Assembly: GCA_965228895.1 (NCBI GenBank)
Contig: OZ245842.1
Coordinates: 3,520,001-3,584,000 of the forward strand
Direction of reading: 5' to 3'
Origin: Alphaproteobacteria bacterium
GTDB lineage: Bacteria > Pseudomonadota > Alphaproteobacteria > SP197
DNA length: 64,000 bases
Position 1 is the first letter of the stretch. Each line of letters opens with the position of its first letter. The notes under the pieces were generated by a model, which worked only from the letters and a program-made list of their open reading frames with translations, made no database searches and had not been told where the DNA came from. The position numbers and the translations under genes were made by a program. Shown piece by piece: positions 5,737 to 8,913 of the stretch.

Positions 5737-5820
5737 GCGACAAGGCGCGCCCGACCTGGGGTCACGCGCTGACCTGTGCTATGCAGGACACCGAGCGCCA
5801 CGCCATGGGGGATGAAGGGG

Positions 5821-6903
5821 ATGGCACTTGGCGGCGGCCGCCCGGATGCCGTGCAGCACGGGCTACCGCAAATCGAAATCGGCGCGGCTGGCGATGTCGG
5901 CCCGCATCTCGTTTCGCTCGTCTTCGAGGAAATCGTCAACCGTCCTTCCCGCTGCGTCCTTACACTGGACGAAGCCGATGGCCAGGGCGGGTATCGTTAT
6001 GACAACGACCGGTCGATCGACTTCGGCGCGGCCGTCGACCTCTCGCTGCTGACCGGCGGCGGAACGGCCGATCCGTCGTTCACCGGCCGCGTTTTCGCTC
6101 TCGCACGGCGCATGGAACACGACAGCGGCCCGCGTCTGGTCGTCGACGCCTATGACCGGCTGCAGGATCTCGCCATGGCGCGCCGCTCGCGCCAGTTCGA
6201 GGAGACGACCGCCGCCGATGTCATCGCGTCGATCGCCGGCGACTACGACCTCGCGGCCGAGGTCGATCTCGATGGCCCCGTGCATCCTGTGCTCGTCCAG
6301 GCCAACGAGAACGACCTCGCTTTCTTGACGCGCCTGGTCGACGATCTCGACGGTGAGCTCTGGCTCGACGGCGACACCTTCCGCGCAAGCCGTCACACGG
6401 CGCGGCCGGGCGCAACCGTCACCGTACGGCCCAACAGCGATCTTTTCAGTCTCGCCATCGACGCCGACCTCACGAGCCAGCACCGCGACCTCTCCGTCCA
6501 CGGTTGGGACCCCGCCGTCAAAGACGCCTTGGCAGCGACCGCCGACTATGAGGCGATTGCTGGCGAGGTGACAGGTCAGGTCAGCGGCGGTCAGTGGCTC
6601 GCCATCCTCGACGCGCCCGGCCCCGATCCCGAGCAGCGTGTCGTCCACCGGACGCCGGCCAACAATGACCACGCCAAGAGCCTGGCCAACGCCACCTACG
6701 CCCGGGTGTCACGGGAGTTTGTTAGGCTGCACGCGCTGGCGCGCGGGCGCGCCGAACTCGGGGTCGGCGCCAAGATAGACCTACAAGGCGCGGGCGCACG
6801 TTTCGACGGTCACTACGCCATATGCCGCGCCCGCCACACATTCGATGCCGAGAACGGCTACCGCACGGAAATTGATGCCCGAAGGAGCGGCCTGGGACGA
6901 TGA
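5821..6903 (+). CDS. Phage late control D / VgrG hub-like protein of a contractile injection system
   Basis: FTGRV.ALA, AYDRLQDLAMARRSRQF, VQANENDLAFLTRL, GARFDGHY...RHTFD...GYRT pattern of gpD/VgrG hub proteins. Start uncertain (5776-5821). Confidence 0.85.
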   Translation: MALGGGRPDAVQHGLPQIEIGAAGDVGPHLVSLVFEEIVNRPSRCVLTLDEADGQGGYRYDNDRSIDFGAAVDLSLLTGGGTADPSFTGRVFALARRMEHDSGPRLVVDAYDRLQDLAMARRSRQFEETTAADVIASIAGDYDLAAEVDLDGPVHPVLVQANENDLAFLTRLVDDLDGELWLDGDTFRASRHTARPGATVTVRPNSDLFSLAIDADLTSQHRDLSVHGWDPAVKDALAATADYEAIAGEVTGQVSGGQWLAILDAPGPDPEQRVVHRTPANNDHAKSLANATYARVSREFVRLHALARGRAELGVGAKIDLQGAGARFDGHYAICRARHTFDAENGYRTEIDARRSGLGR

Positions 6904-7610
6904 ACGAGATAGCGAAACAAGCGGCAATCCCACACGATCAGCGTTTGCCCGGTGACCTCGGCGGCCTGTTCTATGGCGTCTATCCCGCAACGGTCACCGA
7001 CAACCGGGACCCTGCGGGTCAAGCCCGGATCAAGGTCACGTTGCCCTGGCTGACGGACCAGGATCCGCCATCGCTGTGGGCGCGCCATGCGGTGCTGAGT
7101 GCCGGGCCGGACCACGGCTCTCGATTCACACCCGCGATCGGGGCCGAAGTGCTGGTCGCCTTCGAGGCCGGCGATGTTTCGCGTCCCTATATCGTCGGCG
7201 CGTTGTGGAACGGCGTCGACCGGCCGCCCGAGACATCGGACAAGCCTGGCTACGACACCCAGATCCTGTCGACATCGCGCGGCACCCGTGTCGTGTTCGA
7301 TGAGAACGCGGACGGTGGCACGCTGCGCCTCGAAACAGCAGGCGGCCAACGTGTTGTTCTGACCGATTCACCGGAAGGTCTGATTATCGAGGACGCAAGC
7401 GGCAGTCGCATCAAACTGGAGCCCAGCGGTATCTGTATCGAGGCGCCCACCAAGGTCGAGGTCAAGGCCGCGCAAGTCGACATTTCCGCAGCCGTCATCA
7501 GTCTTGATGCCGCCATGGTGCAGGCTTCCGGCGTCGTCAAATGCACGACACTGCAGACCGATACCGTCATCGCGTCGACCTATACGCCCGGCGCCGGCAA
7601 CGTCTGGTAG
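6900..7610 (+). CDS. Phage baseplate assembly protein V / VgrG spike (gp5 OB-fold)
   Basis: YGVYPATVTDNRDP.G.ARIKV.LPW, WAR, P.IG.EVLVAFEAGD..RPYIVGALWNG; C-terminal TYTPGAGNVW; ATGA overlap with the upstream gene. Confidence 0.9.
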   Translation: MNEIAKQAAIPHDQRLPGDLGGLFYGVYPATVTDNRDPAGQARIKVTLPWLTDQDPPSLWARHAVLSAGPDHGSRFTPAIGAEVLVAFEAGDVSRPYIVGALWNGVDRPPETSDKPGYDTQILSTSRGTRVVFDENADGGTLRLETAGGQRVVLTDSPEGLIIEDASGSRIKLEPSGICIEAPTKVEVKAAQVDISAAVISLDAAMVQASGVVKCTTLQTDTVIASTYTPGAGNVW

Positions 7611-7631
7611 TCCTGCTTGGTCAAGTACGTG

Positions 7632-8420
7632 TCAGGTGTTGGGCAAAGGCGCCGGAAAGCATCTGGGAAAATCTGAAACTAACTTTGCTGCTTGTTCGTC
7701 ATTCACACTTCGAACGTAGTTCAGAACAGCTGAGCTCACTGGACCTTCACCGTTAGTCTGAACCGCCAGGCAAAATTCGGCATAGCGCTTTTCTGCGATC
7801 GTAAGTCCTGCTTTGTCCGTATCTATATTGAAGGCTGAGATTGCTGTCGATGGACCAACTGACTTCTCGTCGTTAACGGGAAAGTTCGACCTCTCAGCGG
7901 CAGCTCTAAGACTGTTAGTCGCCTCCTGTACCTGATCCTGGTTGTGTCCTGACACAATGATGTCGTCAACGTACACAGTTGCCGTGACCATTAGTTGTCT
8001 TAGGCAATTGCCTAGATCACTCTTATCTAATGCTAGAGAGGCCAGGAGAGGAGACTGAACAAATCCATACGGTAGGCCAAAGCGTTGTCGCCGATGATCA
8101 ACGCGCACTGTACTAGCGACAGCAAACTCTTCGGCATCGCGGAAACTGAAGCCGATAGTCTTCAGACTTCGTGTAACTCTGTTTCTCCGAACATTGCCAA
8201 AAAAGTTGCTTAGATCAAGCTTGGCAAGCCACGGGTTTCCGGAATGAGAGCGCAAAGCGGCAACATGGCCACCTCGCTGATAGTGAAAGAAAAAACTGGG
8301 CGCATTCCAGTTTTTTCGAATAGCACGAACATGAGCTTCTGCCTCGAACGCCAGTTCTTCGAGTTGTATGTAAACCCATTTCCCACTTGGTAGTCGGAAG
8401 CGCGATTGATAGTTTCTCAA
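7632..8420 (-). CDS. Small reverse transcriptase (retron-like or unclassified group), 262 aa
   Basis: RT motifs in correct order: LAKLDLSNFF (catalytic Asp), LPYGFVQSP (motif B variant), YVDD (7962-7973), FPVNDEKS; GGHVAALRSH lies where retron RTs have NAxxH. TTG start with GGAG upstream; lower GC than the flanks. Confidence 0.9.
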   Translation of the reverse strand: MRNYQSRFRLPSGKWVYIQLEELAFEAEAHVRAIRKNWNAPSFFFHYQRGGHVAALRSHSGNPWLAKLDLSNFFGNVRRNRVTRSLKTIGFSFRDAEEFAVASTVRVDHRRQRFGLPYGFVQSPLLASLALDKSDLGNCLRQLMVTATVYVDDIIVSGHNQDQVQEATNSLRAAAERSNFPVNDEKSVGPSTAISAFNIDTDKAGLTIAEKRYAEFCLAVQTNGEGPVSSAVLNYVRSVNDEQAAKLVSDFPRCFPAPLPNT

Positions 8421-8428
8421 CGTTCGAG

Positions 8429-8545
8429 CTATCTCCGACTGTAGTTAGTGATTAGGCTCACAACCATGTAGACAAGCAAAGCGAAGCGTAGAACTTCGTT
8501 TGCCAGCATTACGTAGCTGCGAACCAGATGCGGGTTAAACCTCAT
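8429..8545 (-). CDS. 38-aa single-transmembrane peptide upstream of the RT (below the ORF-track cutoff)
   Basis: MRFNPHLVRSYVMLANEVLRFALLVYMVVSLITNYSRR*; strong SD (TGAGGAGA) 6 nt before the ATG; stop 8 nt before the RT start; hydrophobic core with basic C-terminus. An in-frame ATG also exists at 8560. Confidence 0.7.
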   Translation of the reverse strand: MRFNPHLVRSYVMLANEVLRFALLVYMVVSLITNYSRR

Positions 8546-8560
8546 CGGTTCTCTCCTCAT

Positions 8561-8730
8561 CCCTGGCCATCTTGACGCCGAAGCGTACCCAATCTCTAAC
8601 CAATAATGCGTTGCCCAGCTGATCAGACAGTTGCAACCAACCGGTCAACTCCCGGACAACCTGAGATGGCTCACGGGGTAGTCCCGAGATGCCACTTAGG
8701 GTCGTCGTGAGGAGATCCCTATTGCCAGGG
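8561..8730 (-). ncRNA. RT-associated structured RNA (retron msr/msd-like)
   Basis: Terminal inverted repeats CCCTGGCaAT (8730-8721) / ATgGCCAGGG (8570-8561) enclosing hairpins at 8697-8721, 8667-8694, 8610-8637 and a C(UUCG)G tetraloop hairpin at 8575-8586; starts just after a predicted -10 box. Confidence 0.7.
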
Positions 8731-8736
8731 CACCGA

Positions 8737-8766
8737 ATAATATCGTGATTGCAATCCCTTTTTCAA
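8737..8766 (-). promoter_or_regulatory. Sigma70-like promoter of the ncRNA-peptide-RT cassette
   Basis: TTGAAA (8766-8761), 18 nt spacer, TATTAT (8742-8737); predicted transcription start about 8730-8731. Confidence 0.6.
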
Positions 8767-8913
8767 CCCAAGGTGTAAGATCCGCAGTGTTCGATCAAGC
8801 AGGTGAAGTCGGTCAACATCGCCACCTTGGCCGTTTAATGGATGTCGCAGTTGACATCTAAAGCTATCCTGCATGGAGCAGTACAAGTTTGCTGCTGCAG
8901 GGGGAGAAGGACC

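Follow-up and report, generated by a model that had tools for sequence, protein, structure and literature searches.

A structured RNA predicted to mask the Shine-Dalgarno sequence of a small peptide gene in a retron-like reverse transcriptase module

Type VI retrons have just shown that a small toxin can be gated via RNA structure instead of a protein complex. The 'hybrid RNA' of Retron-Vpa2 carries msr-msd as well as a toxic small protein whose ribosome site and start codon lie in stem-loops, and multicopy single-stranded DNA (msDNA) accumulating after phage cues derepresses translation of the small toxin (bioRxiv 10.1101/2025.10.22.683967). In Sen3, of the cl2075 lineage, the transcript extends over the small protein and the RNA framework is backed by covariation; the small protein is constitutively made and neutralised by a helix-turn-helix (HTH) protein, and RNA structural selection on its coding region has been reported (bioRxiv 10.64898/2026.04.27.721009). 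The two studied Type VI examples disagree on the share of control held by the RNA and by the HTH protein. A Cro/C1-type HTH gene lies between the small-protein gene and the reverse transcriptase (RT) gene in ~78% of Type VI entries, according to the Type VI retron paper. Here, we analyzed a 64,000-nucleotide stretch from an Alphaproteobacteria bacterium (assembly GCA_965228895.1, contig OZ245842.1, positions 3,520,001 to 3,584,000 of the forward strand), referred to below as the window. On its minus strand, a structured RNA leader, a gene for a small peptide (SP) and an RT gene follow one another, and we found comparative support for a cis pairing between a 5' segment of the RNA and the Shine-Dalgarno (SD) sequence of the SP gene.

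The whole module covers ~1.3 kb (window 8770-7630, minus strand) in the order promoter, RNA, SP, RT. The original prediction, made from the letters of the window, had reported an 8-nt complementarity between UCUCCUCA (8715-8708) and UGAGGAGA (8559-8552), and had placed the SD one base past the terminal closing stem. The letters and coordinates of the complementarity are correct, and A8560 indeed separates the stem CCCUGGC 8730-8724 / GCCAGGG 8567-8561 from the SD strand. The ATG of SP, at 8545, lies 5 nt beyond the last G of GAGGAGAG (8558-8551). The features on which the argument turns are:

8546-8732, minus strand: structured RNA leader (non-coding RNA, ncRNA) of ~170 nt, matched by our covariance model R1
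8724-8730, minus strand: a1, 5' strand of the closing stem, CCCUGGC, pairing with 8567-8561
8717-8723, minus strand: AAUAGGG with the family AGG motif, its A invariant and both G present in at least 90% of sequences
8708-8715, minus strand: anti-SD UCUCCUCA, 'site A', directly 3' of the AUAGGG motif
8561-8567, minus strand: a2, 3' strand of the closing stem, GCCAGGG, pairing with a1
8552-8559, minus strand: SD strand UGAGGAGA with core GAGGAG, one base past a2
8429-8545, minus strand: SP, a 38-amino-acid peptide MRFNPHLVRSYVMLANEVLRFALLVYMVVSLITNYSRR; ATG at 8545, stop codon (included) at 8431-8429
7632-8420, minus strand: RT of 262 amino acids with a TTG start and a YVDD catalytic motif, RVT_1 E=8.4e-19

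The comparisons reported below support cis pairing between the SD of SP, a conserved small peptide gene, and a segment in the 5' part of the RT-associated RNA. They also support selection on the anti-SD/SD pairing, through compensatory variety, own-versus-cross energies and two independent placements of the anti-SD.

The order RNA, small protein, RT on one transcript is shared with Retron-Vpa2, as are an a1/a2-like inverted repeat, a small protein with a basic N-terminus and a ribosome site hidden in RNA structure, which in our case follows from prediction and covariation only. A hydrophobic C-terminal helix is found both in Vpa2 and in the family studied here. Unlike Vpa2, our module has no HTH gene, its SP frame abuts or overlaps the RT gene, and there is no conserved neighbour. 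Furthermore, a2 precedes the SD here, whereas the Vpa2 repeat encloses the small-protein coding region, and the 7-nt direct repeats proposed there as an msDNA docking site have no clear counterpart. With Sen3, the family shares a transcript over the small protein and a covariation-supported RNA framework; it differs in having no HTH gene and in its RT, SP and RNA families. Since there is no HTH gene here, the whole of the control would fall to the RNA.

The original prediction had contrasted RNA-level effector control with the protein-complex neutralisation known for retrons. This contrast is outdated, as the Vpa2 toxin is translationally repressed and derepressed by msDNA, and control at the translation level rather than the protein level was proposed and tested in Vpa2 itself. 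The idea of RNA-level control of a small effector gains support from the selected anti-SD/SD helix, but it is no longer unprecedented after Type VI Vpa2 and Sen3. The family offers the same logic without an HTH partner, in an RT, RNA and peptide lineage of its own that counts at least 471 RT relatives and 125 distinct RNAs. It thereby offers a natural test of whether RNA-only gating is sufficient, in a 1.3-kb module small enough for experiments.

We also considered whether the family belongs to Type VI itself, and rejected this assignment. The RT_VI model gave E=3.9e-11 for the window RT and 6.7e-19 at best among 40 members, compared with 1e-86 to 1e-100 for true members, and no RT_VI match at 1e-30 was found in the window's genome. 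The identity to Type VI RTs (L162-L164) was 25-29%, in the RT core only. The SP profile reached an hhalign probability of 5.1% in a comparison with only 4 Type VI SPs, and R1 found nothing in 12 loci fetched with the RT_VI model (L161-L172), the Type VI authors' own hybrid RNA model lying outside this comparison. By these sequence comparisons, the family is not Type VI, having separate RT, SP and RNA families and no HTH partner.

To define the family, we collected RT relatives of ~250-270 amino acids, of which the protein collection held 471. The N-terminus of the window RT fits the family consensus. We fetched 160 loci, 80 from species genomes and 80 from metagenomes, with 30-49% identity to the window RT. 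Relatives at 55-58% identity were seen in the protein collection, whereas the fetched loci reach 49% at best (locus L081), so that L081 alone represents the window's own subfamily among them. Nearly all fetched loci have the same three parts, RNA, SP and RT.

We compared the pairing of each locus with itself (own) and with other loci (cross), a control in which relatedness among the loci remains. In the contiguous-pair test, the 16 nt before hairpin 2 of the RNA were set against the stretch from a2 to AUG; at least 7 contiguous pairs were found in 58 of 74 loci, compared with 25% of cross-locus pairs. The duplex at the segment called site B was stronger within loci than between them (-11.84 versus -7.57 kcal/mol, p=1.4e-12), and 59 of 71 loci fell in the best quartile. 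An alignment-free test, in which the 75 nt after a1 were matched to the a2-to-AUG stretch in 125 distinct RNAs delimited by the model, gave the same picture (own -15.70 versus cross -12.03 kcal/mol, p=8.2e-20), and the SD core was in the paired 3' strand in 125/125 of these RNAs. The three register-independent tests are mutually consistent. The letters of the helix vary widely among loci, for example CCUCAUC/GAUGAGG, CCUUUCAC/GUGAAAGG and CCUUAGAUC/GAUCUAAGG, and matched changes are seen at site A between L013 (GGUUCUUCC/GGGAGAACC) and L085 (GGUACUUCC/GGGAGUACC). Since the cross-locus controls keep shared ancestry, the p-values overstate the signal, and the variety of helix sequences is the stronger argument.

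The anti-SD occupies two positions in the family. In most loci it lies between hairpins 1 and 2 (site B), and in ~25 loci it directly follows the AUAGG motif (site A). Site A members include the window, L081, the Sphingomonadales loci L013, L020, L102 and L131, and L027, L052, L059, L070 and L086. Across all 71 loci the site A signal was not significant (p=0.23); it holds in the subset only. L081 (49% RT identity) keeps a 9-bp helix, GUUCUCCUC/GAGGAGAAC, with changed letters. The SD is thus the fixed partner, and its mask has been rebuilt elsewhere, so that it occupies different places in two clades. Because the anti-SD moved between clades while the SD side stayed, the pattern is hard to explain unless masking of the SD is the point. 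This shift is a clear case of a regulatory pairing rebuilt with its target kept.

The evidence from the window is weaker than that from its relatives. The window anti-SD and its own SD region form a duplex of -13.1 kcal/mol, and among 125 5' regions, that of the window itself ranks first for the window's SD. Among dinucleotide shuffles of the 172-nt RNA, 102/5000 (~2%) contained a perfect complement of at least 8 nt to some part of the 15 nt before the ATG, and the fold z-score of the window RNA was -1.8, so the predicted fold alone is weak. The window match alone is thus only modestly unlikely, and the case rests on the relatives. These shuffles and the z-score are what a chance complementarity in this one window would have in its favour; set against the family-wide results and the 9-bp helix that L081 keeps with changed letters, we consider such a coincidence extremely improbable.

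The original prediction had also placed the anti-SD in the loop of a hairpin. The letters of this hairpin, UAGGG 8721-8717 / CCCUA 8701-8697, are present, but a hairpin-loop anti-SD is unsupported, as the hairpin occurs in no predicted fold and is absent from L081. The wording that the comparison supports is that the anti-SD lies directly 3' of a conserved AUAGG motif. Similarly, the letters of a proposed second pairing, AUCUCC (8716-8711) with GGAGAU (8436-8431) in the ribosome site of the RT, exist, but the pairing has no comparative support: in 124 loci, leader and RT ribosome site paired no better within loci than between them (own -10.44 versus cross -10.32 kcal/mol, p=0.97). A second in-frame AUG (8560-8558, minus strand) lies inside the SD stretch (GAUGAGGAG) and would give a 43-amino-acid form; it has no SD of its own, and L081 has the same arrangement.

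The RNA as a whole is a family feature. R1 was built from 60 family RNAs with the window left out, and it matches the window RNA over its full length (8732-8540; 31.8 bits, E=7.8e-5), L081 with 32.7 bits and a Klebsiella P2-like (Peduoviridae) prophage record with 38.8 bits. At E<=0.01, it found 141/160 loci overall, 60 of them seeds: 52/60 in the non-seed loci and 89/100 in the set holding the 60 seeds. No match for the leader RNA was found in Rfam at E<=10. In 74 sequences, 90.8% of the cells of the nested helices are paired, compared with 84.1% in shuffled and 33-40% in slid alignments, and 18/23 pairs vary on both sides, a count reached by 0/500 shuffles. The family RNA runs from the promoter through a1, (G)AUAGG, hairpin 1, hairpin 2 (GUCAC-N3-GUGAU) and a variable hairpin to UUGGUU, the hairpin UGCGC-N3-GCGCU, AGGU.., a2, 1-3 nt, the SD and AUG. 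The latter hairpin is 95.8% paired, with 2/4 pairs varying on both sides. The remaining RNA features of the window are:

8697-8721, minus strand: UAGGG..CCCUA hairpin of the original prediction, possible in sequence, unsupported
8598-8603, minus strand: UUGGUU motif, near-invariant in the family alignment
8575-8586, minus strand: small hairpin ACGC-UUCG-GCGU, family form UGCGC-N3-GCGCU

UUGGUU (8603-8598) and the UGCGC-N3-GCGCU hairpin (8586-8575) are kept in sequence throughout the family, which is unusual for a retron template region. UGGUU could also pair with AACUA of the invariant Asn-Tyr codons of SP; both sides are invariant, and covariation is uninformative here.

The closing stem follows the canonical retron plan, in which inverted repeats a1/a2 close the RNA, here with a 7-bp stem. 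In 74 relatives, 90.7% of the a1/a2 cells are paired and 6/7 pairs vary on both sides; L081 has CCCUAGC/GCUAGGG, compensatory to CCCUGGC/GCCAGGG of the window. Canonical retrons have a conserved branching G beside a1 and produce branched msDNA; in this family, G is the usual base at that position, but the window has A there and other loci have U, and the invariant A and the two near-invariant G sit 4-6 nt beyond it.

The RT is retron-like. By family profile, the closest solved structure is the retron Ec86 RT (E=7.9e-11, 202 positions). The VTG and NAXXH motifs of retron RTs have been described previously (PMC7736814). On the VTG of the Ec86 RT the family aligns A-F-N, with F197 and N198 invariant and A196 in at least 90% of 40 members. 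His59 is invariant and aligned with the Ec86 His of region X, and the family reads A-A-L-R-x-H, without the Asn of NAXXH. A-F-N (196-198) and A-A-L-R-x-H (54-59, window RT numbering) are usable diagnostics for this RT group. The best NCBIfam match, retron_St85_RT, scored 58 bits against a cut-off of 235, so that the curated retron cut-off was not reached. In PADLOC, 40/40 members match several retron RT models, over the RT core only (best E=2.5e-20).

Like canonical retrons such as Ec86, the family has a retron RT as its best solved match, an aligned region X His, a covarying terminal stem enclosing the RNA, and a place on P2-like prophages and plasmids. Unlike them, it has A-F-N for VTG, an RT of 262 amino acids compared with 320 for the Ec86 RT, a template-like half conserved in sequence rather than variable, and no separate effector of normal size. 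The covarying a1/a2-type stem and the retron RTs among the best database and PDB matches would suit a canonical retron, in which SP is neutralised as a protein by abundant msDNA and RT, and the SD pairing arises as a by-product where a purine-rich SD adjoins a pyrimidine-rich leader. A by-product of this kind fits poorly with the own-versus-cross signal and the compensatory variety, and a canonical retron fits poorly with A-F-N in the place of VTG and a base after a1 that is not always G. We regard this explanation as very unlikely.

DRT2 systems consist of an ncRNA and an RT and carry out de novo gene synthesis. Our family resembles DRT2 in combining an RT with an upstream RNA, here possibly pseudoknotted, without a large effector; it differs in that the effector candidate is already an encoded open reading frame. 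Membership of DRT2 was rejected, the NCBIfam Drt2 model giving E=0.16 and 11 bits against a cut-off of 390.

We found no description of this HTH-less SP-RT family in the literature searched, although the Type VI and Mestre 2020 supplements (RT lists, covariance models), which lay outside this search, might include members. The family seems to be unannotated, as do its RNA and peptide, with no named family for it in Rfam, PADLOC 2.0 or NCBIfam. They would add a structured RNA family and a small-protein family to the catalogues of defence systems.

The peptide is conserved along with the RNA. A profile built from the family's own peptides matches 148 of the 157 loci with at least 150 nt upstream, which supports SP as a real conserved gene. 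SP has a median length of ~50 amino acids, a basic N-terminus and a hydrophobic character, and its terminal motif is Asn-Tyr, in which Tyr is invariant and Asn is present in at least 90% of 58 sequences. The maximal hydropathy over 19 residues is 1.84 in the window SP, and 42/58 peptides reach at least 1.6, the usual mark of a membrane helix. No match for SP was found in PHROGs or Pfam, and its best score in a protein atlas was 0.81, below the 0.9 mark. The language-model neighbours of the window SP include DinQ-like and TisB clusters at 0.75-0.76; as these scores are below the 0.9 mark, they are a lead only. Within the SP open reading frame of the window, a terminator-like hairpin with a T-rich tail (8482-8498, minus strand; CGAAG..CTTCG, CTTTGCTTGT) was seen, at 1 site compared with 1.4 expected in shuffles, and may mean nothing.

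Type I toxin-antitoxin systems pair a small membrane toxin with an antisense RNA antitoxin. The module is similar to the type I toxin mRNAs tisB, hok and dinQ in that a small hydrophobic peptide has its SD hidden by a long-range 5' element. It differs from them in having an RT-associated structured RNA as its leader and in carrying the peptide gene in an operon with the RT. No antisense RNA gene was seen at the module, where no search aimed at antisense RNA was made.

The SP frame runs into the start of the RT gene in 120 of 124 distinct loci; the window is among the exceptions, with the RT start 8 nt beyond the SP stop codon. In L081 (175-475), the SP frame continues for more than 100 codons without a stop, deep into the RT gene, which may reflect a genuine extension, a frameshift or a faulty assembly. 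The frequent overlap suits co-production of two subunits. In a rival explanation, SP would be an RT cofactor or chaperone made together with the RT rather than a toxin, with the anti-SD/SD helix as a second closing stem for RT recognition or priming whose overlap with the SD keeps ribosomes off. Such an architectural helix would agree with the position of the anti-SD/SD helix next to a1/a2, with the short RT (262 versus 320 amino acids for Ec86 RT) and with the sequence conservation of the 3' half of the RNA (UUGGUU, GCGC hairpin), as expected of a protein-binding scaffold. However, the element that changed position between clades is the partner of the SD and not the SD side, which points to the SD as the constrained element, and the SD core is in the paired strand in every one of the 125 RNAs. 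In addition, Type VI small proteins in the same genomic position are toxic, as stated in the Vpa2 preprint (bioRxiv 10.1101/2025.10.22.683967), although sequence homology to them is not detectable. Prediction of an RT and SP complex gave a score of 0.01, with no call by the predictor, and weighs neither for nor against this explanation. We consider the architectural explanation unlikely, though it deserves some weight.

We think it probable that the locus is a minimal retron-like module, in which the long-range helix hiding the SD would keep translation of SP, the presumed effector, low, and the action of the RT might open this helix. The analysis shows the anatomy of this module, with one promoter on the minus strand, its conservation as a unit of RNA, SP and RT, and covariation both of the a1/a2 stem that closes the RNA and of the helix between the SD, immediately 3' of a2, and the pyrimidine-rich segment near the 5' end. 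This helix would hide the ribosome-binding site, leaving SP poorly translated while the fold persists. As the SP frame adjoins or overlaps the beginning of the RT gene, translation of the RT is probably held down along with it. SP is a candidate small toxin because it is small, basic and hydrophobic, is positioned as Type VI SPs are, and has weak type I toxin neighbours by language model. As a speculation by analogy with Retron-Vpa2, a phage cue might lead to RT action on the RNA (complementary DNA (cDNA) synthesis or loss of the template strand), which would remove or occupy the 5' strand, free the SD and allow the peptide to be made.

A more specific version, which we hold only tentatively and rate as doubtful, describes a widespread HTH-less two-gene retron relative of Proteobacteria, carried on P2-like prophages, plasmids and integrase islands. 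Here, one RNA would serve as RT template or scaffold, riboregulator and mRNA; a covarying pseudoknot-type helix would keep a toxic peptide of 40-50 amino acids untranslated, and phage-triggered reverse transcription or template loss would open the helix. If true, there would be no protein antitoxin, immunity would be gated purely by RNA structure, and RT synthesis would be coupled to toxin synthesis.

Several observations weigh against the minimal module as we propose it. In alignment A3, a fixed-column count found 49.0% of the anti-SD/SD positions paired, compared with 49.3% in shuffled alignments (294/500 shuffles as high) and 60.3% when slid by +1. This count failed because the helix register shifts between loci and MAFFT does not keep the helix in register; the support for the helix comes from per-locus best duplexes against cross-locus controls, from which shared ancestry is not removed. 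The covariation of anti-SD and SD across homologous loci, which the original prediction had named as a check, is accordingly seen in the own-versus-cross duplexes and the varied letters but gives no signal in fixed columns. The window anti-SD is generic: as its partner, the window SD ranks no higher than the top 17-20% of all SDs. No release device was found: the signal for a covarying anti-SD copy in the template-like region was weak (own 5.09 versus cross 4.70 nt, p=0.004, with 7/74 loci reaching 7 nt or more), a second anti-SD in this region was not found (p=0.77), and neither was an internal SD mimic (own -6.10 versus cross -6.47 kcal/mol). The SP peptides carry a median of 3 charged residues in the 24 residues ahead of Asn-Tyr. 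Finally, the window linkers are 7 nt (a1 to anti-SD) and 1 nt (a2 to SD), so the two helices may not coexist, and their energies are close.

The predicted folds of the window bear on this last point. The a1/a2 and anti-SD/SD helices cross, and both together would form a pseudoknot. In the minimum free energy (MFE) structure from RNAfold (-75.7 kcal/mol), the two 8-mers pair as a nested closing stem, not as a pseudoknot, and a1/a2 is unformed; with a1/a2 forced, the energy is -71.7 kcal/mol, 4 kcal/mol worse than the anti-SD/SD fold. Given the linkers of 7 nt and 1 nt, the geometry suggests that in the window the two helices are as likely to alternate as to form a pseudoknot. In site B loci, hairpin 1 supplies a long linker. 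In the MFE fold of the window, a1 (CCCUG) pairs with the conserved UAGGG rather than with a2 (8717-8730, minus strand), possibly a third state specific to the window.

Two window folds of similar predicted energy would also suit an autogenous feedback, in which RT bound to the RNA makes the SD-hiding fold more stable and thereby limits how much SP and RT is produced, with no phage switch and no role for cDNA. This feedback would also accord with a shared transcript for leader, SP and RT and with an RT start that falls in or beside the SP frame. It leaves the intact YVDD polymerase and the mobile and defence-type contexts unexplained, and is otherwise indistinguishable here from the minimal retron-like module; we judge it quite unlikely.

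As to these contexts, the proteins most often encoded alongside the module are an integrase (13 loci) and an Mrr-type nuclease (7 loci), the RT is also present on 8 plasmid records, and relatives lie at the end of 13 near-identical prophage records of the Klebsiella P2-like (Peduoviridae) kind. A conserved third gene was not found: a nearby same-strand open reading frame exists in 42 of the 121 loci that have 700 nt or more of downstream sequence, and these frames do not cluster.

The promoter of the window module is predicted as follows:

8737-8766, minus strand: sigma-70-like promoter, TTGAAA-18 nt-TATTAT, with 10/12 consensus matches

The promoter scan gave 2 sites compared with 0.9 expected in shuffles. 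The predicted transcription start, ~7 nt past the promoter, is at or just ahead of a1, and in the family alignment equivalent TTGC..TAnnnT blocks are located upstream of a1.

The module forms a low-GC island (~49% GC compared with ~65% in the surroundings) with no further gene inside it. Contigs from 4 sequencing runs showed no variation across 7600-8900, but one of them is identical to the window and may be its source, so this comparison carries no information. The downstream neighbour gene is convergent and encodes Phage_base_V, with Phage_GPD ahead of it (pair region 5776-7610, plus strand), and the upstream neighbour is divergent and encodes a TPR protein. The module (7600-8900) is thus wedged between a phage-tail-like Phage_GPD/Phage_base_V pair and a TPR protein gene.

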